Positions 21,304-45,297 of a stretch of 46,279 nt of DNA are shown one piece after another. The notes under the pieces were generated by a model that was not told where the DNA came from, ran no database searches, and was given only the letters and a program-made list of their open reading frames with translations. Position 1 is the first letter of the stretch, and every line of letters begins with the position of its first letter. Origin of the DNA: a virus (taxonomy: Duplodnaviria; Caudoviricetes); IMG/VR virus record IMGVR_UViG_3300046779_000472, positions 1 to 46,279 of that record; one strand, given 5' to 3'. The position numbers and the translations under genes were made by a program.

Positions 21304-23076
21304 ATTAAAACCCCTAGACTGTTCGCAGCAATCTCACTGGCTTTCCTGCCAATATTTTTTGCTACTCCAGCACATGCAGAAGATGTCGTAGACCCAGTTG
21401 TCGTGGTAGTTACTGAGCCAGTAGCACCCGTTGTTACCGTAGTGAATACGCCTGGTGGAGATGACTCATCCTATCAAATACCATTAACCACTACAGTAAC
21501 TTTTGACGGAGTTCAGTATAGCTCTGTTTATGCCACCACTAACTCTGTTATTACTTTTGGACAGCCAGATGGAACTTACTGGACCTATCCATCAACACCA
21601 TCTATATCTCTTTACTCAATGGACTGGGTTGTTTATCCAAACGCTCGTGCCGATGAGCATCTAACTATTGCTGCATCAGATGGTGGATTCCAGGTAGATA
21701 TTTCTGCTCGTCCTATCTGGCTTCAGAATGCTACAGAGCCAACTAATATTAATATTGTAGCTGCTATAAATACCGATGGAACAGTCTCTATCTCATATTC
21801 ACTTACTGGGCCAACTTACGAAGGGCAGACCAGAACAGGGGTTAGACTTACAAATGGAGATGTGGTTACTCTAGAACAGTATGGTGTAGTCCAGGTTGAG
21901 ACTCCTCCAGTACTAACGCCAGAGCCAGTATTGCCTACCCCTACGCCAACTCCAGAGCCAACGATAGAGCCTACACCTACCCCAACTCCTACAGTAGAAC
22001 CAACGCCAACGCCAGAACCAACTCCAACAATAACTCCACCATTTATTCCACAGGGTGCAACCCTACTTGGCGAGGGGTCAAGTGTTCAGGTAGTTGCACC
22101 AGAAGGTCAGAGAATAGTTAGTGTTACTGCTTGGTATGGTGATCCAAATGATGGTTCTCGTGGAGTTGAAGTCTCATCTACCTTGACACAACTAGCTTCT
22201 GGACAAACATCGATCACTATTGACTCATCAAATGTTTATGGTGATCCAGCCCCTGGAACAGTAAAGACCCTAATATTTGTAGTGGTATACGAGCAGATAC
22301 CTACACCTACCCCTACTCCAGAGCCAACCCCCACACCAGAACCGCAGCCAGAGCCTTCTCCAACACCAACTGAAACACCAGTTATAATAGTACCAACGCC
22401 TACACCAACAGAGGAGCCAGTTGTCCCTACACCAGAACCAACAGTGGATCCCGAGCCAACCACGCCACCTACGGAAGAGCCAACACCTACACCTACGCCG
22501 TCCGAGGAACCTGTTGAAGAGCCAACAACGCCTGAGCCACAGCCGATACCAGAGCCAGAGCCGCTACCAGCCCCAGAAGTACAGCCAGAACCTGAGCTAC
22601 CTGTAGCAGAGGATGAGGCAGTTGAAGAAATTGCTAGCCTTATTGAAGAAATTAAGCCAGAAGATCTAACAGATGCTCAGGTTGAGCAACTTGTTGAGGC
22701 AGCCTTAGTTGTCTTTGAGACTGCTGAGCAAGGCTCCCCAGCTTATGAGCAAGCACTGGAGGCCCTTGCAGTGGCAGCAGAGGCTGATGACCCAGAAATT
22801 TCTGAAGAGCTGGCAGCCATTCCATTGCTTGGAGATGCAGCAGGTGCAGCTCTTGAGGCACTTAATAATCTTGGTAACGTTGGTGCCGATATGGCTCCTG
22901 AAGTCCGTGAGGAAGCAGAAAAGACAGTTATCGCATCTGTTATTGCTACTGGAGCAGCCGTAAACGCAGTTGCCGCAGCTGCAACGGCAGCAACATCAAC
23001 AACCACAGGATCATCTGGAGGTGGAGCATCTGCAGGCTCTTCAGGTGGATCGGGATCAACAAGGAGAAAGTTATAA
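21304..23076 (+). CDS. Secreted Pro/Thr/Glu-rich surface protein with a SUEL/Gal-lectin-like domain; probable ATT start
   Basis: SD AAGGAG 21292-21297, then ATT AAA ACC... giving signal peptide (M)KTPRLFAAISLAFLPIFFATPAHA; YGDPAPGTVKTL lectin motif; PT/PE linkers; Ala-rich C-terminal segment. Confidence 0.7.
   Translation: MKTPRLFAAISLAFLPIFFATPAHAEDVVDPVVVVVTEPVAPVVTVVNTPGGDDSSYQIPLTTTVTFDGVQYSSVYATTNSVITFGQPDGTYWTYPSTPSISLYSMDWVVYPNARADEHLTIAASDGGFQVDISARPIWLQNATEPTNINIVAAINTDGTVSISYSLTGPTYEGQTRTGVRLTNGDVVTLEQYGVVQVETPPVLTPEPVLPTPTPTPEPTIEPTPTPTPTVEPTPTPEPTPTITPPFIPQGATLLGEGSSVQVVAPEGQRIVSVTAWYGDPNDGSRGVEVSSTLTQLASGQTSITIDSSNVYGDPAPGTVKTLIFVVVYEQIPTPTPTPEPTPTPEPQPEPSPTPTETPVIIVPTPTPTEEPVVPTPEPTVDPEPTTPPTEEPTPTPTPSEEPVEEPTTPEPQPIPEPEPLPAPEVQPEPELPVAEDEAVEEIASLIEEIKPEDLTDAQVEQLVEAALVVFETAEQGSPAYEQALEALAVAAEADDPEISEELAAIPLLGDAAGAALEALNNLGNVGADMAPEVREEAEKTVIASVIATGAAVNAVAAAATAATSTTTGSSGGGASAGSSGGSGSTRRKL
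21900..22600 (+). repeat. Low-complexity (PT/PE)n coding repeats in two blocks flanking the lectin-like domain
   Basis: Repeated PTPTPTPEP units in the translation; degenerate at DNA level. Confidence 0.7.
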
Positions 23077-24543: not shown

Positions 24544-25347
24544 ATGAAAAAAACAACAATTATTATTGGTGCAATTCTTGCATCACTATCACTAACTCCA
24601 GCATATGCAGAAGAAGTAAAGACTCTGGCTATTATTGATAGCTACTTTGATACATCCAAGCTTTCTGGAAACATTGAAACTGTTTGTGTCGCAACCACTG
24701 GCTGTGACCTAACACCAAATTATGTGTCGAAGTCTTTCTCTGACCCACTTAATCACGGTACTGCTATGGCAGAAATAGCCATTAAGCAAAACCCAAAGGT
24801 AAAGTTGTTGCTAATTCGTGCAGCGTCAGAAACAAAGAACGCACGAACAGGTGCAGTATCTATTGGATTAATTAATGGCAATGACTTTCTAAAGTCGCTA
24901 CAGCTGGTGTCAAATAGAAAAGATGTACAGGCCGTATCATTCTCATATAACCTATCTGGAAACAAGGCATGCTCCTTGTCCACAACTGGTGGAGTAAATG
25001 TTAGGCTGGTCGATCCACAAATTCAGTCTACAATCTCTGGCCTAAAGGCTAAGGGTGTTCCAGTATTTTCATCTACTGGAAATAAGGCAGGTGCTGCAGT
25101 AAATTATCCAGCATGTATTCAGGATGTAAATTCTGTGGGCATCGGTGACCTAAATAAAAATGGAGCAATTTCTAGTGTGTACACCTTTGATGCTAATACA
25201 GATTACTTTGCAACAGCATCAGTATCTAACTATACCTCAAAGGCGTTTGGACTAATTCCAAATACAACTTCTGCTGGTAATGTTGCAGTTGCTGCAAAGT
25301 ATTTGCTATCATCGCTTGACAACAAGTTTGTAAATGTGATACCATAG
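24544..25347 (+). CDS. Secreted subtilisin-like (S8) peptidase
   Basis: Signal peptide; AIIDS (Asp), NHGTAMA (His), STGN, YPA, TTSAG (Ser). Confidence 0.7.
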   Translation: MKKTTIIIGAILASLSLTPAYAEEVKTLAIIDSYFDTSKLSGNIETVCVATTGCDLTPNYVSKSFSDPLNHGTAMAEIAIKQNPKVKLLLIRAASETKNARTGAVSIGLINGNDFLKSLQLVSNRKDVQAVSFSYNLSGNKACSLSTTGGVNVRLVDPQIQSTISGLKAKGVPVFSSTGNKAGAAVNYPACIQDVNSVGIGDLNKNGAISSVYTFDANTDYFATASVSNYTSKAFGLIPNTTSAGNVAVAAKYLLSSLDNKFVNVIP

Positions 25348-25379
25348 TATTAAAGGAAGTCCATCCTTAAACGGACGAT

Positions 25380-25452
25380 TGGGACATAGCTCAGCTGGCA
25401 GAGCGTTCGACTGTTAATCGAAATGTCGCAGGTTCGATCCCTGCTGTCCCAG
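25380..25452 (+). tRNA. tRNA-Asn(GTT)
   Basis: Full cloverleaf, TGGGACA/TGTCCCA acceptor, anticodon loop CT-GTT-AA; CCA not encoded. Confidence 0.92.
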
Positions 25453-25504
25453 CTAATGGTTCCGCTTGCACCACTCCTCGGGTATAGGATAAAAGCAAGC
25501 AAGT

Positions 25505-25575
25505 GCGTATGTTGCATAGTGGTAGTGCCCTATCCTTCCAAGTTAGAGGTGCAGGTTCGATTCCTGTCATACGCT
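25505..25575 (+). tRNA. tRNA-Gly(TCC)
   Basis: GCGTATG/CATACGC acceptor, loop CT-TCC-AA, TTCGATT T-loop. Confidence 0.88.
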
Positions 25576-25576
25576 C

Positions 25577-25749
25577 TATAGGTTAATCACCTATACGTGT
25601 ACAAGTGCACGTAAAATTGTCAACACTTGTTGCTGTCCAGGCAGTAGTTAATCTGGCGTGTAAGCACCTCATGATATAGGTTCGGAGCTGGTCACTCGTC
25701 TTAGGAAACGACTCAGGGATATAGGTCTGATTAATCTGATATCCCACCA
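25577..25749 (+). ncRNA. Candidate structured ncRNA (tandem pseudoknots plus CCA-ended minihelix)
   Basis: See findings; several nested and crossing helices and a terminal GGGATAT/ATATCCC-ACCA. Confidence 0.5.
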
Positions 25750-25818
25750 GGATAGATAGTTTAATAGGCAAAACGGCGTTGATCAGCCAGATTGGAAGTT
25801 CGACTCTTCCTCTATCCA
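25750..25818 (+). ncRNA. tRNA-like RNA with a truncated anticodon arm
   Basis: GGATAGA/TCTATCC acceptor, GTTT/AAAC D-stem, GGAAG-TTCGACT-CTTCC T-arm; anticodon arm only GGC-GTTGATCA-GCC. Confidence 0.65.
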
Positions 25819-25919
25819 CGAACGACTTATAACTGCAGTTCGTAATTGTTCGGCACCCAGAAATGGGTTAAGCTATAAGCGTCCATCAAGGTTGGTCCAC
25901 CCTCGTACGAGAACGGCCA

Positions 25920-25987
25920 GGACTTGTATGGTAACTGGAAGCACTCCAGGTGAAGCCATGGCAAACGGTGCAAATCCGACAAGTCCA
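25920..25987 (+). ncRNA. tRNA-like mimic B
   Basis: GGACTTGT/ACAAGTCC stem, ATGGT/GCCAT arm capped by CTGGA/TCCAG, CGG-TGCAAAT-CCG T-like arm. Confidence 0.5.
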
Positions 25988-25988
25988 C

Positions 25989-26066
25989 GATTCTTGCTAG
26001 AGACGGTTGTGTATGCAGCCATTTCGTGCCTCTACAGCCAGTCACAAAGTCTGGCCAAGAATCACC
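25989..26066 (+). ncRNA. tRNA-like mimic C
   Basis: GATTCTTG/CAAGAATC-ACC stem, TAGAG/CTCTA arm capped by GGTTGT/GCAGCC, GCCAG/CTGGC arm stacked on the closing stem. Confidence 0.45.
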
Positions 26067-26067
26067 T

Positions 26068-26141
26068 GGTCTGTTAGCTCAGTTGGTTAGAGCACCACCC
26101 TGTCACGGTGGGGGTCGTGGGTTCAAGTCCCATACAGATCG
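26068..26141 (+). tRNA. tRNA-Asp(GTC)
   Basis: GGTCTGT/ACAGATC acceptor, CCACC-CT-GTC-AC-GGTGG. Confidence 0.92.
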
Positions 26142-26219
26142 CAAAAAGTGGTGAAGTGGAGTATGTTGCAACTAAACTCTTCGTAAGAAACCCAGTGATG
26201 CTGGACATCCACTTTTTAT

Positions 26220-26292
26220 GCCGCCTTAGCTCATCTGGTAGAGCGACGCACTTGTAATGCGTAGGTGGTCGGTTCGAGTCCGACAGGTGGCT
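26220..26292 (+). tRNA. tRNA-Thr(TGT)
   Basis: GCCGCCT/AGGTGGC acceptor, ACGCA-CT-TGT-AA-TGCGT. Confidence 0.92.
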
Positions 26293-26308
26293 CTGAAAGG
26301 GTATTGCT

Positions 26309-26959
26309 ATGCAAAGCAGTTTTAATGAAGACTATGACTTCAATATATGGCAGAACTCTATAGATCCTAAGTTTCTAGAAATATCTGCAAGATCTAAGAT
26401 ACCAGAGAAATGGTTGATCTATGGTGGACATGGCTATGAAGATTCACCAATAAAGCCAATAAATAGGTATGTAGAAAATCTATATCCTGGGCCAGAGCTT
26501 ATTAGCATAAATAATAATACCGTAGTTCTTAGGCAAAGAAATCACGCAGAGATATTTTTGTTAGATAATTCAGATGGCTTCAGGAATATCGATAGGCCAC
26601 ATATGAGACAGTATTATCAGTCTTCTATGTCGCTGCCATTAGACCCAGAGTGTTTTGATCCAGTCTATGCCTTCTACACTCCCTGGATACTAGACCACAA
26701 TGTATTGGTTGATATTGTCCAGCCATCGGAAGATGGACCGTTTTTGGTACACCACACAAAGGCAAGCTTCTTTGAGTTCCCAGATGTAGTTAATTTTATA
26801 GAGCCACAGTTTGTGCCATTTAGATTTAAGAAGAGTGGCGAACATATGGTGTCCCCAGGCTTTGGCAAGATTAAGATTGGATCCCCAATGTTCGACATGG
26901 TCTTTGAGGCAGATGATATACTTGTAGAAAAGATAAGGAAGTTCTATGAACAAGATTAA
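26309..26959 (+). CDS. Hypothetical protein, possibly distantly related to the next two ORFs
   Basis: 216 aa; C-terminal KIKIGSPMFDM resembles the neighbours' GTP(L/I)xQ segment. Confidence 0.55.
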   Translation: MQSSFNEDYDFNIWQNSIDPKFLEISARSKIPEKWLIYGGHGYEDSPIKPINRYVENLYPGPELISINNNTVVLRQRNHAEIFLLDNSDGFRNIDRPHMRQYYQSSMSLPLDPECFDPVYAFYTPWILDHNVLVDIVQPSEDGPFLVHHTKASFFEFPDVVNFIEPQFVPFRFKKSGEHMVSPGFGKIKIGSPMFDMVFEADDILVEKIRKFYEQD

Positions 26960-27668
26960 GTTTTATCCATTTAGTAGGGATACATCCCTATTTGCTCCAC
27001 CACCATTGCCAGCATCAAGATTTTTGCCAGATTGGTATAGGAGCCAGAAGGGTATAATTAATTACGAGCAGTCTATTCCTCACGGGGCAGTTAATGCCAC
27101 CGTTAAAAAGTGTATGCCAGTTTTTGACATACTCACTTCTGGATATATCATTGTGGCCCCATGTGATATTTATGTAGATGCTACTGATCCAGACAAGCTT
27201 ACCTACTCAGTGCCACTAACCATGAAGCAGTTTCAGTCTGATATATTTGCAACACATGCACCAGAACAATACTCAGACTATCCAATAGATGGATCAATCT
27301 ATCACAAGACTCTGTTCAGAGTTATGCCATTTTGGTCAGTGGGAACTCCATCAGGTTATAGTGCTATGTTCTGTCAGCCATTCCACAGAGAAGACACTGG
27401 ACTATTTGCTATGAGTGCAGTAGTAGACACAGACAAGTTTGTCACTGATGGTCACCTATCATTCCTCGTAAAGAAAGACTTTAAGGGTGTTATAAAGCAG
27501 GGTACACCACTCATCCAGGTAATACCTTTTAAGAGAGAAGACTGGGAATCAGAGTTGGTATCAGTAGACGAATCCTCTGCAGTAATATCTAAGCAAAGAC
27601 TTAGCGTTAGAAGTATGTTTGCAAATGGTTATAAAGATAAGTTCAGATCTAAGAAAGATTATAGGTAG
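26946..27668 (+). CDS. Hypothetical protein (DUF6065/dUTPase-like fold suspected)
   Basis: PDWY, TVKKCMPVFD..SGY, TPSGYS, GTPLIQVIPFKREDWE. Confidence 0.6.
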   Translation: MNKIKFYPFSRDTSLFAPPPLPASRFLPDWYRSQKGIINYEQSIPHGAVNATVKKCMPVFDILTSGYIIVAPCDIYVDATDPDKLTYSVPLTMKQFQSDIFATHAPEQYSDYPIDGSIYHKTLFRVMPFWSVGTPSGYSAMFCQPFHREDTGLFAMSAVVDTDKFVTDGHLSFLVKKDFKGVIKQGTPLIQVIPFKREDWESELVSVDESSAVISKQRLSVRSMFANGYKDKFRSKKDYR

Positions 27669-28414
27669 TGCAAGATCCACTAAAAATTAGTTTTACTCCA
27701 GCTTTTCGTGAGCCAGGAGAGATGCTGACTGCACCAATCCCTGCCTACAAGAATGTTCCAGAGTGGTATCGAGCTTTGGCTAAGTTTAAAGATTCTAACG
27801 ACGATATAACGCTAGATCCACAAAATAATCTTGGCACAGATGGAGCACAGGTTTCTACAAAAATGTGCATGCCATTCTTGGATGCAACCACTGCAGGGTA
27901 TCACTATGTTCTAGAGGATGATCTTCATGTAGAAATAGATACTGATGGCAAGCCAATCCTGTCTTGGGCTGGAGATGTAATGCTTGTAGATAAAAGACCA
28001 ATCATAGATTTGCCAGTACCGAACAACTGTCATCCAATACATTACGGATGGAGAATGAACTGGTACTACGAGACACCACCAGGATATTCAGTCCTGATCA
28101 CCCACCCAATGAATAGGTATGACCTACCATTTTATGTTCAGTCTGGAATAGTGGACTCAGATATCTGGGGACTACCAGTTTTCATCACATTCTTTTTACA
28201 AAAAGATTTCCAGGGAACCATTCCTAAAGGAACTCCAATCATGCAGATCGTACCATTTAAGCGTGACAACTGGGAGCTAGCAGTAGAGGATACTCAAGAG
28301 GCCCTAGACAAGCATGAGTTTATGGCAGAGAACAGACGATCAATGCTCTATGGGTATTACAAAAAGACCGCATGGAGAAAAAAGCTCTTTAGAATGTTTA
28401 GAAAAGATGAGTAG
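27668..28414 (+). CDS. Paralog of the preceding protein
   Basis: PEWY, TKMCMPFLDATTAGY, TPPGYS, GTPIMQIVPFKRDNWE. Confidence 0.6.
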   Translation: MQDPLKISFTPAFREPGEMLTAPIPAYKNVPEWYRALAKFKDSNDDITLDPQNNLGTDGAQVSTKMCMPFLDATTAGYHYVLEDDLHVEIDTDGKPILSWAGDVMLVDKRPIIDLPVPNNCHPIHYGWRMNWYYETPPGYSVLITHPMNRYDLPFYVQSGIVDSDIWGLPVFITFFLQKDFQGTIPKGTPIMQIVPFKRDNWELAVEDTQEALDKHEFMAENRRSMLYGYYKKTAWRKKLFRMFRKDE

Positions 28415-29238
28415 TGATGGCAACTATAGACATAATCTTATACTCATATAAAAATAAGAATCTAAAGTTAGTTGTAGACACCGTCTTAAAAAATACAAAG
28501 TCTGACTTTAGAATATTTTTGTTTGATCAAAATCCGATAAACAGGAAAGACCTGTTCCTAGATGACAGGATACTATACACTCACATTATATGGGATATAA
28601 TTCATAGTCCATGCGAGTATAAGGCTCACGCAATATACAATGACGTCCAGTCTGAGTACGTTCTACTTATGTCTGATGATATATTGCTTGATGATGGTTG
28701 GGATGTAGAGTCTATGGATCTTATTAGCTCTGGACATAATGTGCTCTCTGGTAATGGCAAGATCACGGTTTCAATGAAGAGTAAAAACTTTTTAGAGTCA
28801 GCCTATGATTCTAGCAATGTCCCAACCTTATCTAACTATATTGATAGAAACTTTATATTTACTAAGCTAGATACCTGGGAAAACGTTCCTTATCCATATT
28901 CTTTAAAGTACAATGGTGAACAAGAAATTCTTTCTATAAACTTTTTAAAGGCTGGGCAAAGCATATACTCAGTACCCACAAAGATATATTCAAGGCTTGG
29001 GCATAACACAATAGAAACTATCTATGTTCCATTTTCTATAAACCACAGATATAACGATGCAATAGAGGCTCTGAGATCACCAGACGGTCAAAGACTGCTT
29101 TCAATCTTTGGGATAGACAGCCAGGAACTGATGCCACTAACCTATCCTAAAGATGATGTTTTGTATAATCCCTACGAGCTAAAGTTTCAGGGCGTGGATG
29201 CCAGGAAGTTTATATCTAGAATAAAAGCAATTTATTGA
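28414..29238 (+). CDS. GT-A fold (GT2-like) glycosyltransferase
   Basis: IDIILYSYK N-terminus; YVLLMSDDILLDDGWD (DxD-type motif); YNGEQE. Confidence 0.55.
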   Translation: MMATIDIILYSYKNKNLKLVVDTVLKNTKSDFRIFLFDQNPINRKDLFLDDRILYTHIIWDIIHSPCEYKAHAIYNDVQSEYVLLMSDDILLDDGWDVESMDLISSGHNVLSGNGKITVSMKSKNFLESAYDSSNVPTLSNYIDRNFIFTKLDTWENVPYPYSLKYNGEQEILSINFLKAGQSIYSVPTKIYSRLGHNTIETIYVPFSINHRYNDAIEALRSPDGQRLLSIFGIDSQELMPLTYPKDDVLYNPYELKFQGVDARKFISRIKAIY

Positions 29239-29260
29239 TATACTTAATACAGGAGGAAAG

Positions 29261-29860
29261 ATGCACAGAATAAAAGTAATAGATAATTTTATAACACCAG
29301 AGGATGCCCAGACCTTAATAGATGAGCAAAAGAGTCCGTCTGAAATAAACCCATACCCAGATTATTACAAGAATAGGTACGGTGGCACAGCCTTTCCATA
29401 TAACAAGCGTGTAATGGACATTTTAATTAAGTATGGTATTAAGTCCAACGAGGTTCACAAGAGTGAGAGTGGATTTCTTAATCCAGTGTATGTGTTTAAA
29501 TCATTTGGCTCTTGGTGGCACCCAGGACAGAAGGGTGACCTACATCTAGACGCACAGGGTCCAGAACCATTCATTGAGTGGAGCACAATCATTTACTTAA
29601 ATAGTCCAGAAGATTATGACGGTGGGATTATCTACTTCCCAAACCAGGGGTTTGAATACAAGCCACGACAGTATTCTGCAGTATTCTTTCCATCAGCAGG
29701 GTCAGAATATATTCACGGCATCTCTGAGATCACCAGAGGAACTAGACATACCGCACTATATATGCACACAAGCATACCAGAACATGCAGATCCAGACTTT
29801 CATTCAGCTCAAGAGCGAAGCACCTGGATGGCATTAGAGCATCCATACAATAAGGGGTAG
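29261..29860 (+). CDS. 2OG-Fe(II) oxygenase (prolyl-hydroxylase-like)
   Basis: LHLD, IIYLN..DYDGG, FFPS...YIHG...GTR. Confidence 0.8.
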   Translation: MHRIKVIDNFITPEDAQTLIDEQKSPSEINPYPDYYKNRYGGTAFPYNKRVMDILIKYGIKSNEVHKSESGFLNPVYVFKSFGSWWHPGQKGDLHLDAQGPEPFIEWSTIIYLNSPEDYDGGIIYFPNQGFEYKPRQYSAVFFPSAGSEYIHGISEITRGTRHTALYMHTSIPEHADPDFHSAQERSTWMALEHPYNKG

Positions 29861-29861
29861 C

Positions 29862-31295
29862 ATGAAAATCCTGGGAATAAATGAGACTACCCATGATGCA
29901 TCCGCTACACTAATTGATGAGGGTAAGATTCTTTTTGCTGGTCATGCTGAGAGGTATAGTAAAACTAAGAATGATTGGTTTACTAATCCTCAGCTAATTA
30001 GAGATCTATATAAGTATGGTACTCCAGATAAGATTGCCTACTATGAGAAGCGTTGGCTAAAGAAGCTTAGAATATCTTTGCGTGGTGGCTTTGGTGGATC
30101 TAAGCCAGAGTATAAAAACATGTGGGTCTCAGAGTTGCCAGAAAAATCATTTGCTCATCACTACTCTCATGCAGCAGCTGGATACTATACCAGCCCATTT
30201 AAAGATGCTGTTATTGTCGTGCTTGATGCTATCGGTGAATTTACAACATCTAGTATTTGGGTGGGCAATGGAGACAGCATAACGCTCCATAAAAAGTGGA
30301 GTTACCCATTTAGTTTTGGACTCTTCTACTCTGCGTTTACACAGCTAATCGGGCTAAAGCCTAATGAAGAAGAATACATCATGATGGGGATGGCTGCATA
30401 TGGTGATCCAGATCTATACTTAGATAAAGTTTCTGAATATTTCCCTGCGGTATACAAGCAGAAATATAATTTTCATAAGGGAATATATGACTGGGGACAA
30501 GACATCACAGAGAATGACAAGTTTCATATTGCTGCAGCTGTTCAAAAGGTATACGAGGACAGACTTTGGGATTTTATGTACATAGCTCGACAAGAGCTAG
30601 ACAGTCCAAATCTAGTATTCATGGGTGGCTGTGCATTGAACAGTAAGGCAAACACTATGCTGTGGGACATATTCCCAGACGTTTGGATTATGCCTAACCC
30701 AGGAGATGCAGGAAGCTCTTTAGGGGCTGCTGCAGCCATGTCTGGCAAGCACCTAGATTGGCAAGGTCCCTATTTGGGACATGATCTTGGTGGGGAGTAC
30801 CCTGTTCAGGCCATATTCGATGAGATAATGAGCAATCAGATAGCTGCTGTTGCCTCTGGTAGAGCTGAGTACGGGCCACGTGCCCTGGGAAATAGAAGCA
30901 TTTTGGCTGACCCACGTGATCCAGAAATAAAGAATAAGGTTAATAAGATAAAGAAGCGTGAACTCTTTAGGCCATTTGCTCCTGTGGTAATGGAAGAATA
31001 TGCCTCTGAATGGTTCGATATGGACTATACAAGCCCTTACATGCAGTACACACCCAAATGCCTTAAGCCAGATCTAATTCCGTCAGTGGTCCACCACGAC
31101 GGCACTTCAAGGGTTCAGACTGTAAACAAAGATCAGCACCCAGGGCTTTACAAATTGCTAGAAATGTTCTATAATGAAACAGGTATTCCTATTCTACTTA
31201 ACACTAGCCTCAACATAAAGGGGCAGCCATTGCTAAATGACGAGGCTGATATAATTGAATGGGAAAAGACATATAAGACAAGGATTATCAGATGA
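29862..31295 (+). CDS. Carbamoyltransferase (NodU/CmcH family)
   Basis: ILGINETTHDASA, HHYSHAA, DAIGE, GGCALN, GDAGSSLG, EYGPRALGNRSILA, RPFAP, LNTSLN. Confidence 0.9.
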   Translation: MKILGINETTHDASATLIDEGKILFAGHAERYSKTKNDWFTNPQLIRDLYKYGTPDKIAYYEKRWLKKLRISLRGGFGGSKPEYKNMWVSELPEKSFAHHYSHAAAGYYTSPFKDAVIVVLDAIGEFTTSSIWVGNGDSITLHKKWSYPFSFGLFYSAFTQLIGLKPNEEEYIMMGMAAYGDPDLYLDKVSEYFPAVYKQKYNFHKGIYDWGQDITENDKFHIAAAVQKVYEDRLWDFMYIARQELDSPNLVFMGGCALNSKANTMLWDIFPDVWIMPNPGDAGSSLGAAAAMSGKHLDWQGPYLGHDLGGEYPVQAIFDEIMSNQIAAVASGRAEYGPRALGNRSILADPRDPEIKNKVNKIKKRELFRPFAPVVMEEYASEWFDMDYTSPYMQYTPKCLKPDLIPSVVHHDGTSRVQTVNKDQHPGLYKLLEMFYNETGIPILLNTSLNIKGQPLLNDEADIIEWEKTYKTRIIR

Positions 31296-31942
31296 GCTTA
31301 GACTACAGGGTGCTAGACCTAGGATTAGTATATTATAAAAATGCTATTCCAGATCCACAGTTTATCATAGACACTGTTAATGAAGTTGATAGAAGATTTA
31401 CTGCTGGTGAGCATGGCGACAATCCAACTGATGTAAAGTCTTGGAATGCTTGGACTTACGGAAATATGACGTTTAATTGGCAAAAGTTTTTCCCAGAGTC
31501 TAAGGACATCAGTCCAGATGACTATTACGGAAAAGAGATGAAGGCTGTTGCAGACATACTGTATTCATCCCTAGATAATGCTTTTGCTCATTATACTAAT
31601 GTCTTGTATCCGTTTGCAGCAAAAAACATAAAGAATCGTGAGGAAAGCATCCATTTGCTTAGATATGAACAGAATGGTCATTTGCCTGCACACCAAGATC
31701 AGGGTGTGAGCAGTCGTGTTTTATCTAGTGTAATGTATCTAAATGATAATTATGAGGGTGGGGAAATTGAGTTTATGCAGTCTGGCGTTAAGCTTAAGCC
31801 AGAAGCTGGAAGCGTTATCTTTTTCCCAGCAAACTTCTTGTACGTACATGAGGTTTACCCTATAACAAGTGGCTCAAGATATTCGATGCCACACTGGTAC
31901 CACAACATGAAACAAATGATTCACTCTAATGGTGACGAATAA
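31292..31942 (+). CDS. 2OG-Fe(II) oxygenase
   Basis: HQD, VMYLNDNYEGGE, FPANFLYVHEV...GSRY. Confidence 0.8.
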   Translation: MSLDYRVLDLGLVYYKNAIPDPQFIIDTVNEVDRRFTAGEHGDNPTDVKSWNAWTYGNMTFNWQKFFPESKDISPDDYYGKEMKAVADILYSSLDNAFAHYTNVLYPFAAKNIKNREESIHLLRYEQNGHLPAHQDQGVSSRVLSSVMYLNDNYEGGEIEFMQSGVKLKPEAGSVIFFPANFLYVHEVYPITSGSRYSMPHWYHNMKQMIHSNGDE

Positions 31943-31953
31943 AGGAGAAATAA

Positions 31954-32574
31954 ATGGCAAAGACACAGTTTCCAATTGATGGAAAGTTGGGTAAGCAATA
32001 CAAGGTTACGTCTGAGTATGGATGGCGTATTCACCCAGTAGAAAAGACAAAGAAGCACCACAATGGAGTAGACCTATGGGGTGCAGCAGCAACAATTTAT
32101 ATTGAGAACTTCCACGATGGTAAGGTTATTTTTGCTGGCCCATCAAGCAAGAAGAATCCAGATGGATCGGTTGGTGGCTTTGGCTACCACGTAATGGTTC
32201 AGCACAAGATTGACGGCAAGTTCTATGTATCTGTTTATGCTCACATGCGTAAGGGATCTCTAAAGGTTAAGGTTGGTCAGAAGATTGAGGCTGGAACAGT
32301 TCTGGGTATCATGGATGCCACTGGAATGGTTACTGGTAAGCACCTACATTGGGAGATCAACGTTGGAAAGAAGTATGTTTGGACTGGCAACGGTAAGGGA
32401 TATGTAAACCCAATGACCTTCACTAAGGCACTTATTGCAAAGGAGGCCGCATTGGCAGAAGCTGCAGTGGCTACACCAGAAGATGGCCCAACTGCTGCAG
32501 CACCAACACACGATGACGCTCAGGCTGACGCACTGGCAGCAGAACGCCAAGCCGCAAAGGCGGCTCTAGCATAA
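31954..32574 (+). CDS. M23 family peptidase (endolysin-like)
   Basis: TSEYGWR.HP, HHNGVD, YAHM, TGKHLHWEI. Confidence 0.85.
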   Translation: MAKTQFPIDGKLGKQYKVTSEYGWRIHPVEKTKKHHNGVDLWGAAATIYIENFHDGKVIFAGPSSKKNPDGSVGGFGYHVMVQHKIDGKFYVSVYAHMRKGSLKVKVGQKIEAGTVLGIMDATGMVTGKHLHWEINVGKKYVWTGNGKGYVNPMTFTKALIAKEAALAEAAVATPEDGPTAAAPTHDDAQADALAAERQAAKAALA

Positions 32575-32777
32575 TGGCAGATTCTAGAAAAAAGAGTCTA
32601 AAGAAAACCATTAGCTGGCAGATTGTTCACATGACGCTGGTTGCTGGAACCATCTACGTTCTGACTGGTGAGTGGGAAATTGCAGGCATTGCAGCCCTAA
32701 TGGAGCTGGTGTGGGAATCTATAGCGTTCTACTTCCACGAAAGAGCCTGGGCCAAGTGGGGTAAGAAGGTAAAGTAA
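32574..32777 (+). CDS. DUF2061-like membrane protein
   Basis: KKSLKKTISWQ...FYFHERAW. Confidence 0.7.
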   Translation: MADSRKKSLKKTISWQIVHMTLVAGTIYVLTGEWEIAGIAALMELVWESIAFYFHERAWAKWGKKVK

Positions 32778-32953
32778 TGGCAACATATGAATACACTTGC
32801 CGTGAATGTGAGACAACCAAAACTGTTTCTAGAGGCATTTCAGATCCAGATCCAGGATATTTTTGTGAGACTTGCGGAAATAGAATGAACAGGGTATACT
32901 CAATGAGTAACCCAGTGTTCAAGGGTAGTGGATTCTACAGAACGGATAAGTAG
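32777..32953 (+). CDS. FmdB-like Zn-ribbon protein (58 aa, below the ORF-track cutoff)
   Basis: MATYEYTCREC...CETCG...FKGSGFYRTDK. Confidence 0.8.
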   Translation: MATYEYTCRECETTKTVSRGISDPDPGYFCETCGNRMNRVYSMSNPVFKGSGFYRTDK

Positions 32954-33183
32954 TGACAGAGACATTAGAGTGGGTACTAACTGCTAATGATCGTTGTGAT
33001 AGTTGTGGGGCACAGGGGTATGTCCAAGTAACAGGAGTTACTGGAGACCTTGTGTTCTGTAACCATCACTACAATAAGATTATGGACAATACAACTGGGT
33101 ATGAAAAAATGATGAACTTCGCTTATAATATTTTGGATGAGCGAGATCGACTAGTTGAGAATAGATTGCAGGGAAAAGATTGA
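32953..33183 (+). CDS. Small Zn-binding actinobacterial-type protein
   Basis: LTANDRCDSCGAQ...LVFCNHH. Confidence 0.6.
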   Translation: MTETLEWVLTANDRCDSCGAQGYVQVTGVTGDLVFCNHHYNKIMDNTTGYEKMMNFAYNILDERDRLVENRLQGKD

Positions 33184-33947
33184 TAATTCAAATTATTGGT
33201 TTGCCAGGAAGTGGTAAAACTACAATAGCCGATGCACTAAGAGATAGAATTAATGGTTTGCATATCAATGCTGACGACGTTCGTAATGGAATTAATAAAG
33301 ATCTTGGTTTTTCAATAGAGGATAGAGTTGAGAATGCTAGAAGGCTGGGAGAGCTTGCTAGACTCATGGCTACTAAACAGGATAAACCAGTCATTGTAGA
33401 CTTTATAAATCCAACAGCCGCTACGAGAGAGGCCTTTGGTAAGGCAGACATTGTTGTTTGGATGGATACAATTACCGAGGGAAGATTCGAAGATACAAAT
33501 AAGCTTTGGGAGACTCCGCTACAGTACGATCATCGAATAACTGTAATCGGAAATGACTACGATGATTCTATCGCCACGAGAACCTTTAAGATAATTACAG
33601 ATTTTAACTTGTTTGATTGGAAAGCAGACTCAACGCTAATGCTTGGTCGCTACCAGCCTTGGCACGAAGGGCATAGGGCTTTATATGATGAGGCCAAGCC
33701 AAAGAATAAGCAAACTGTAATTGCAGTAAGGCATACTCAGGGGATGACGGAAAAAGATCCAATGTCGTTTGAGGATGTTAAGAGGAATATCTTGGCTGAC
33801 GTTCCAGACGCAATAGTAATTAAAGCACCAAACTTTAAGAGCATTGTTTACGGACGTGATGTTGGATATTCTATAGAACAGATCAACCTGTCACCAGAGC
33901 TTCAGGCTATATCGGCTACTCAGAAACGCAAAGAGATGGGCCTATGA
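33180..33947 (+). CDS. APS-kinase (CysC)-like P-loop kinase fused to an HxGH nucleotidyltransferase-like domain
   Basis: GLPGSGKTT, NADDVR..DLGFSIEDRVEN; GRYQPWHEGH. Confidence 0.75.
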   Translation: MIIQIIGLPGSGKTTIADALRDRINGLHINADDVRNGINKDLGFSIEDRVENARRLGELARLMATKQDKPVIVDFINPTAATREAFGKADIVVWMDTITEGRFEDTNKLWETPLQYDHRITVIGNDYDDSIATRTFKIITDFNLFDWKADSTLMLGRYQPWHEGHRALYDEAKPKNKQTVIAVRHTQGMTEKDPMSFEDVKRNILADVPDAIVIKAPNFKSIVYGRDVGYSIEQINLSPELQAISATQKRKEMGL

Positions 33948-41762: not shown

Positions 41763-41852
41763 ATGAAGTCAAACCAGCAATCGCATCAGCGATATAGCTT
41801 GGCCTACTCGTGGCAACATCAAGCCAGCCTCCAGAGCATTCGCTCACTATAA
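41763..41852 (+). CDS. Small ORF (29 aa) inside tRNA cluster 2
   Basis: TGATACAAT -10, GGAG SD, MKSNQQSHQRYSLAYSWQHQASLQSIRSL. Confidence 0.35.
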   Translation: MKSNQQSHQRYSLAYSWQHQASLQSIRSL

Positions 41853-42030: not shown

Positions 42031-42031
42031 A

Positions 42032-42108
42032 GGCATGGCCGCTGGGACGGATACGGGACTGTAAATCCTGTGCAATTTGCTAGAAGGGTTCGATTCCCTG
42101 ACATGCCA
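42032..42108 (+). tRNA. tRNA-Tyr(GTA), atypical
   Basis: CGGGA-CT-GTA-AA-TCCTG, long variable arm, TTCGATT T-loop; weak D-arm and mismatches at the acceptor/T junction. Confidence 0.65.
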
Positions 42109-42110
42109 CT

Positions 42111-45222: not shown

Positions 45223-45296
45223 TCTGCGATATCCTAATAGGTCAAGGAACCACTCTTATAAGGTGGAATATCTGGGTTCAAGTCCCAGTCGCAGTA
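45223..45296 (+). tRNA. tRNA-Ile(TAT)
   Basis: CTGCGA/TCGCAG acceptor (T1-T72 mismatch), TCCT/AGGA D-stem, CCACT-CT-TAT-AA-GGTGG, CTGGG-TTCAAGT-CCCAG. Confidence 0.8.
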
Positions 45297-45297
45297 C

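Follow-up and report, generated by a model that had tools for sequence, protein, structure and literature searches.

Conserved pseudoknotted RNA modules in the tRNA array of a likely actinobacterial phage

What is encoded between the tRNAs of a phage when the spacers are far wider than the tRNA genes require? The window, by which we mean the whole stretch of DNA analysed here, is a single linear virus record of 46,279 bases and about 40% complete. DnaB, DnaG, DnaE, RecA, a class Ib ribonucleotide reductase, ThyX, a large terminase and a WhiB-like protein are encoded in it. WhiB has been used in freshwater phages to assign hosts to Actinobacteria, at phylum level only (PMC6802176, PMC12143481), and this contig, whose source is described as a lake phage, likely comes from an actinobacterial phage. 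The array under study contains tRNA-Asn, tRNA-Gly, tRNA-Asp and tRNA-Thr (Table 1), a fifth tRNA-like match (mimic 1) and a sixth tRNA-like element (mimic 2) that is called by neither ARAGORN nor Rfam. ORFs spanning the array were rejected as genes; their reading frames are broken by indels in homologues. Downstream of the array (26309-33947) lie auxiliary genes for a carbamoyltransferase, a 2OG-Fe(II) oxygenase, an M23 peptidase and an APS-kinase-like protein. A 557-aa ORF at 21403-23076 contains a low-complexity repeat and lies in the sole G+C-rich, negatively skewed kilobase of the window.

A preliminary description had read the spacers of this array as about seven small H-type pseudoknots, possibly released by tRNA processing and acting as mimics of type III antitoxins, protein decoys or exonuclease blocks, and had set them against the tight packing of the other tRNA clusters. 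The packing is as described, with gaps of 0-1 nt and one exception, an 80-nt gap at 42031-42110. By eye this gap holds a sequence that resembles tRNA-Tyr(GUA), its D arm reduced; ARAGORN and Rfam miss it here, but it is called as Tyr in L122 and L160. A tRNA-Ile with the anticodon UAU, rare in bacteria, is found at 45223-45297. Directly upstream of tRNA-Trp, a 30-codon ORF (41763-41852) contains one Trp codon, and short ORFs with an SLAYSW core are seen by eye upstream of tRNA-Trp in L034 and L332 as well; the ORF is possibly a leader peptide controlling the second tRNA cluster.

Table 1. Features of the tRNA array, with the evidence on which each assignment is based.
Feature	Position	Strand	Evidence or remark
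Predicted promoter (TTGACA, 18 nt, TG-extended TACCAT)	25316..25345	+	consensus match only
Element 1, 24-nt H-type pseudoknot in 5' leader	25353..25376	+	descriptor and five variants
tRNA-Asn(GUU)	25380..25452	+	tRNA calling (ARAGORN, Rfam)
Element 2, stand-alone pseudoknot with hairpin in loop 3	25457..25500	+	29-sequence covariation
tRNA-Gly(UCC)	25505..25575	+	tRNA calling (ARAGORN, Rfam)
173-nt RNA: 5' hairpin, elements 3-6, 3' hairpin	25577..25749	+	homologue alignment, tiling
5' hairpin, 6 bp, 7-nt loop U-UAAUCA (predicted kissing loop 1)	25577..25595	+	stem varies between subtypes, stays paired
Element 3, pseudoknot 1 of 4	25596..25630	+	alignment, tiling
Element 4, pseudoknot 2 of 4	25631..25656	+	alignment, tiling
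Element 5, pseudoknot 3 of 4	25657..25681	+	certainty lowest in diverged members
Element 6, pseudoknot 4 of 4	25685..25713	+	paired changes; stems replaced in L049, L322
3' hairpin, 11 bp, 7-nt loop C-UGAUUA (predicted kissing loop 2)	25716..25745	+	double changes in 4 of 11 pairs
tRNA mimic 1	25750..25818	+	acceptor, D and T arms; 2-3 bp anticodon stem
Conserved folded module with GNRA hairpin	25820..25883	+	homologues L136, L168, L324; paired changes by eye
Element 7, pseudoknot with hairpin in loop 3	25890..25918	+	descriptor; homologues by eye
tRNA mimic 2	25920..25987	+	acceptor stem and T-arm with UGCAAAU loop, no cloverleaf
Closed folded module with eighth pseudoknot (26005-26029)	25989..26067	+	homologues L122, L324
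tRNA-Asp(GUC)	26068..26141	+	tRNA calling (ARAGORN, Rfam)
Closed multi-hairpin module	26143..26219	+	homologues L136, L140, L029
tRNA-Thr(UGU)	26220..26292	+	tRNA calling (ARAGORN, Rfam)

All stem pairs of the seven proposed pseudoknots are present at their reported positions. A census of the four non-tRNA spacers (356 nt), made with a compact H-type descriptor, was compared with dinucleotide shuffles at five stringency settings. Between 4 and 7 pseudoknots are observed, against shuffle means of 0.3-2.1, and none of 150 shuffles reaches the observed count at any setting. The descriptor finds exactly the same seven elements in the spacers; against these seven the shuffles give 1-2, and the reverse complement of the spacers gives 0-1. 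The pseudoknot within the module ahead of tRNA-Asp is an eighth, beyond the original seven. However, the compact descriptor was written after the elements had been seen, and a loose descriptor is about equally productive on both strands, with 17 'pseudoknots' on the plus and 15 on the minus strand in 960 nt. The evidence from homologues therefore outweighs the count. The loose descriptor and the weak z-scores of nested folding, which is unremarkable (z = -0.99 for the 173-nt RNA), would suit chance folds in neutral spacer DNA. This reading does not survive the paired changes seen in element 2 and in the 173-nt RNA, and we give it virtually no weight.

Homologues were collected by one protein scan, seven pattern scans of viral contigs, and one scan each of metagenome contigs and species genomes; the counts are lower bounds for two of the pattern scans. 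In related phage contigs the pairing is preserved despite base changes, which bears out the structural part of the original proposal. From this comparison of sequences we conclude that the pseudoknots are real, conserved structure.

Element 2 is a mobile 50-nt module. In 29 distinct sequences its pairs are kept in 98.5% of 398 cells, and double changes are found in 10 of 14 pairs, including all 6 of stem 2. None of 500 shuffles matches the pairing or the covariation score, and slid controls pair at 34-48%. The pairing percentage is inflated because the descriptor that selected the sequences required pairing; the variety of pair types is unaffected. A GGU/ACC core, one C, one U-A pair and UAAA are invariant, and these bases would fit minor-groove packing. 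The position of the module is equally constrained. Of 38 distinct variants, 36 start 4 nt past the discriminator of a tRNA called by ARAGORN, and in the other two a mimic or a truncated tRNA lies upstream at the same distance. The identity of this upstream neighbour varies: Asn, Met, Gly, Asp or a mimic. On the 3' side a called tRNA follows at 1-5 nt in 33 of 38 variants; of the rest, two are followed by a truncated tRNA-Gly and three lack a tRNA directly downstream. Such fixed distances from tRNA ends fit the release by tRNA processing that had been proposed. The loose element-2 pattern occurs at no fewer than 119 viral loci, of which at least 24 score strongly, 2 weakly and 93 not at all. 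No second copy is found in the window, and in the one-genome-per-species set none of 5 pattern matches was confirmed by the model.

The neighbourhood of a tRNA 3' end recalls theta ribozymes, small pseudoknotted RNAs that likewise adjoin the 3' ends of phage tRNAs and are described as requiring a nested double pseudoknot and a J4/2 cytosine (PMC10879173). If some modules were self-cleaving ribozymes that make tRNA ends, element 2 would be the candidate, which starts no more than 5 nt from the 3' end of a tRNA and orders its helices P1, P2, P4 as in the HDV fold (PMC10879173). However, it has only three helices and lacks P3 and the nested second pseudoknot, the junction before its last strand is an invariant UAAA (29 of 29) with no catalytic cytosine, and no Rfam ribozyme matches. 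We regard such a ribozyme as highly improbable. The fixed 4-nt offset of element 2, and the location of element 1 at the predicted 5' end, could also reflect a purely cis-acting role, in which the pseudoknots keep tRNA folding insulated or hold up exonucleases where processing intermediates end; bacterial RNase J1, for instance, can be stopped by a viral xrRNA (PMC5760640). Against this, the modules follow different tRNAs in different arrays or are absent, and sister arrays with the same tRNA order then have gaps of 0-4 nt. Because these module-free arrays exist, tRNA maturation is independent of the modules, which are cargo. Four knots and a long-range kiss, as described below for the 173-nt RNA, would also be superfluous for a block in cis, and a role in cis only is quite improbable.

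Element 1 lies about 7 nt past the predicted extended -10 promoter and ends 3-4 nt before tRNA-Asn (3 nt in the window). The promoter is a consensus match of a type of which shuffles yield 3.7 sites; the same motif is found upstream of element 1 in L002, L092, L140 and L161. Transcription would start at about 25351-25353. Among the five variants of element 1 there is one double change, in stem 2 (U-A to C-G in L057), the weakest covariation of the seven. Element 1 is probably real, though with the thinnest support of all. A role as stop-codon readthrough signal of the upstream gene was rejected because the distance from the -10 box and the upstream context vary.

Elements 3-6 are not free-standing units of about 35 nt but parts of one 173-nt RNA that fills the gap between tRNA-Gly and mimic 1. 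Elements 3, 4 and 5 follow the 5' hairpin with linkers of 0 nt; element 6 and the 3' hairpin are each preceded by 2-3 nt. The seven pseudoknots likely belong to four separate RNAs. The unit moves as a whole, after Gly, Asp or Asn, and is found in at least 27 other contigs, of which 22 are viral and 5 metagenomic. Homologues measure 173, 174 or 175 nt, a spread that breaks any reading frame. Against cultured phages the 173-nt RNA gave only chance matches, and the array matched at its tRNAs alone. An alignment of 20 close sequences has 98.9% of its 1138 cells paired, with double changes in 11 of 58 pairs. Within this set only one-sided changes are found in element 5 and in stem 2 of element 6. 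Element 6, previously labelled the weaker one, is better supported than that, since A-U is changed to G-C in 9 of the 20 and both L049 and L322 carry replaced stems. For element 5, stem 2 is replaced in L132; the element is missing from the L049 tiling and ambiguous in L322 and L324.

Of 11 representatives, 10 have the middle of the RNA tiled by four pseudoknots, among them subtypes whose sequences are unrelated; L161, L123 and L132 carry unrelated sequence at pseudoknot positions 3 and 4. The chain totals 30-38 bp across subtypes, and for each of the four sequences tested 0 of 40 shuffles score as well. In L049 no four-knot tiling was found, only three pseudoknots. An 11-bp duplex joining the RNA ends, which appears in the nested minimum-energy fold, was rejected; it is not conserved in other subtypes. 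In the modules the stems vary freely and the A-rich loops are conserved, and selection therefore appears to act on shape, not on antisense pairing.

This architecture bears directly on the proposed panel of antitoxin mimics. Type III antitoxins of the ToxI/AbiQ/CptI kind are tandem repeats with toxin-binding single-stranded tails, and escape through pseudo-ToxI RNA exists (PMC5086642). The array elements resemble them as small H-type folds of similar size with an A-rich loop 3, and elements 1, 6 and 7 have a short stem-2/AAC signature in common. However, four of the seven are fused by linkers of 0-3 nt (0 nt between elements 3, 4 and 5) and are therefore without the single-stranded tails that ToxI uses for toxin binding; elements 1, 2 and 7 are flanked by 1-4 nt. 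Near-identical tandem repeats and an adjacent toxin are also absent from the array. The contig, about 40% complete, yields no match to the toxin profile PF13958, but neither do the control genomes. At Rfam gathering scores the window matches tRNAs only, and in 25300-26320 no credible family, including antitoxins, GOLLD and ROOL, appears at E up to 10. Type III systems are described mainly from Firmicutes, Fusobacteria and Proteobacteria (PMC5086642), whereas the present phage carries WhiB; the available text of a survey of 722 TenpN sequences contains no word beginning with 'Actino' (PMC12283969). An antitoxin panel is thus hardly tenable.

The two hairpin loops of the 173-nt RNA, both of 7 nt, are complementary over six bases. 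The 3' loop is identical in 25 of 25 sequences compared, partly because two search patterns required it; a pattern without this requirement returned 18 contigs, all already in the set. Among the 20 close sequences the 5' loop pairs 6/6 in 18 and 5/6 in 2, and no double change is found. The informative sequences are L322 and L324, which were found by the scan for mimic 1 and not by the search for the 173-nt RNA. Their 169-nt spacer carries both hairpins and three clear pseudoknots in new sequence. Relative to the window, loop positions 2, 4 and 5 are changed together with their exact partners: A-U to U-A and U-A to C-G are restored, one pair is broken (U-C), and 5/6 are kept. This covariation represents one lineage, two contigs with identical loops, in a register that is defined by the hairpins and in which MAFFT did not align the 5' loop. 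On these grounds we hold the predicted kiss between the two end loops to be quite probable and no more certain than that. Pairing of the palindromic UGAUCA loop of mimic 1 with a 173-nt RNA loop was rejected, because the mimic loop is unchanged in L322 and L324 where the kissing loops changed and because L332 carries the mimic with no 173-nt RNA nearby.

The kiss could form between molecules or within one. In the latter case a compact closed monomer would bind a specific host protein as a decoy or inhibitor. The covariation is the same for both geometries, and closure would be helped by bends at the 2-3 nt linkers; the loop-to-loop distance is steady at 132-146 nt across subtypes, and a 23-bp kissed rod beside the 30-38 bp pseudoknot chain could close. 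However, with zero-nt linkers the helices would tend to stack coaxially and turn the 5' loop away, and some ROOL kissing loops first read as tertiary proved quaternary (PMC12286853). We rank head-to-tail assembly between molecules ahead of the closed monomer, which appears unlikely.

Downstream of the 173-nt RNA the array continues with further modules. Mimic 1, with its conserved UGAUCA loop on a very short anticodon stem, is likely non-decoding. In the scan for it, 11 of 16 matches are true mimics, 10 of them accompanied by the 173-nt RNA. Element 7 closes a spacer of about 100 nt, 1 nt before mimic 2, and has the topology of element 2; by eye, in four sequences, stem 2 changes G-C to A-U in L324 and both stems are replaced in L168. 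Mimic 2, whose acceptor stem shows paired changes in L122, L130 and L114, is a second non-decoding tRNA mimic. The acceptor/T-arm surface kept by both mimics is what RNase P and RNase Z read, and they therefore likely serve as cut marks. No one- or two-piece tmRNA is called in the window, neither mimic has G3-U70, and the tmRNA combination of tRNA-Ala-like domain, tag reading frame and pseudoknot chain is not found in the array.

Other arrays hold related material. In L136 and L141 other acceptor-plus-T-arm mimics with a UGCAA(A/C)U loop and unrelated interiors follow element 7 or the 173-nt RNA. A further spacer family combines a 5' hairpin, whose loop is CUGAACA, with a complementary stretch downstream, in spacers of 165-172 nt (L033, L034, L049, L055, L064, L079, L011, L132) or 149-156 nt (L160, L324); the members scanned have no Rfam match. 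L161 (1301-1471) and a 193-nt spacer of L332 represent a family starting with a 7-nt-loop hairpin that has a candidate partner loop. Protein genes lie inside the arrays of L122, L137, L140, L130, L056 and L073, some with HNH-like cysteine motifs by eye, and such inserted genes may drive module shuffling.

Modules of relatives are covered by contigs from four freshwater RNA libraries. None of the 23 listed runs contains half of the words; four were examined, as contigs only. In window coordinates, two contigs of run X7 span 25588-25745 and 25590-25748, the latter extending into mimic 2; one of run X1 spans 25470-25684, taking in element 2, tRNA-Gly and element 3, and one of run X2 spans 25779-25880. 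Protein genes of relatives are likewise covered in these runs. No contig shows a discrete RNA end. Contigs that run across a module and a tRNA or mimic fit a precursor or DNA. DNA carry-over is possible, and uncovered flanks in these contigs prove nothing. In X7 the 173-nt contigs have depths of 43 and 5 and the listed protein-gene pieces 2.5-5.6, figures that cannot rank expression.

How do these RNAs compare with known systems? The modules are real, structured phage RNAs in a tRNA array and as such of a known kind, sharing a conserved fold, tRNA flanks and the lack of a reading frame with GOLLD, ROOL and manA. GOLLD and ROOL are likewise structured phage RNAs near tRNA arrays with pseudoknots and kissing loops (PMC12286853, PMC5737381, PMC12990946), but are three to five times longer than the 173-nt RNA. 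Closer in size is manA, which is phage-borne and shorter than 200 nt (RF01745; PMC2864571) and forms cages, 8- to 60-mers, through intermolecular kissing loops (10.64898/2026.07.01.735769). It occurs in the same tRNA arrays, above the Rfam cut-off in seven sister arrays (L034, L140, L141, L160, L123, L322, L332) out of 28 loci scanned, with no RF01745 match in the window. Loop-loop kissing is predicted for the 173-nt RNA too; manA, however, is multibranched, whereas in the 173-nt RNA four pseudoknots follow one another in a line, with a single end-to-end kiss and an assembly that is only predicted. Complementary loops also join the phage RNA of phi29, pRNA, into rings; that RNA is built on a three-way junction and belongs to a packaging motor.

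The tobamovirus upstream pseudoknot domain likewise places consecutive small pseudoknots directly upstream of a tRNA-like element, with structure counting more than sequence (PMC4683447). It is described as a cis element at the 3' end of a plant-virus mRNA, whereas the 173-nt RNA has four knots and capping hairpins and lies in the tRNA operon of a DNA phage. Elements 2 and 7 share with the preQ1-II riboswitch its topology, including the extra hairpin in the last loop (RF01054; PMC11625349). In element 2, however, loop 1 and stem 2 vary freely and there is no loop-2 base, tRNAs follow in place of a ribosome-binding site and a gene, RF01054 has no match in the window, and the conserved ligand-binding C and U are not found. 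A literature search by title and beginning of abstract, with subscription papers mostly outside its scope, returned no description of these RNAs. They may correspond to a published motif outside Rfam; the supplement of PMC5737381 diagrams 224 motifs. What appears new from the alignments is that four knots tile the RNA even in subtypes of unrelated sequence, and that the predicted kissing loops show compensating changes.

The comparison of relatives documents folds with paired changes, fixed distances to tRNA ends, gain, loss and reordering of modules, and loop complementarity. As the best explanation we tentatively propose, at somewhat less than an even chance, that the modules are released and that the 173-nt RNA assembles head-to-tail into a protein-binding scaffold. 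One transcript would start at the predicted promoter. RNase P would cut before, and RNase Z/E after, each tRNA or mimic, leaving separate stable RNAs. The pseudoknots would be struts that matter by shape only and would also slow exonucleases. The 173-nt RNA would form a stiff four-pseudoknot chain, whose end loops pair between molecules to give rings or chains, and the purpose may be to sequester host RNA-binding proteins.

Why phages keep structured RNAs in their tRNA arrays is an open question for GOLLD, ROOL and manA alike. The present locus suggests a further-reaching answer, which we consider rather doubtful: freshwater actinophages may carry an exchangeable, self-assembling RNA kit, in which the 173-nt strut would polymerise head-to-tail into protein-free rings or filaments that trap host RNA-binding proteins. 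Assembly and function are cheap to test, because the modules are short, variably present in close relatives and provided with natural loop-swap variants. If true, the head-to-tail strut would be an architecture distinct from the manA, ROOL and GOLLD cages, with kissing loops that are programmable, and a four-pseudoknot strut with an end-to-end kiss would be a new natural RNA architecture and a part for RNA design.
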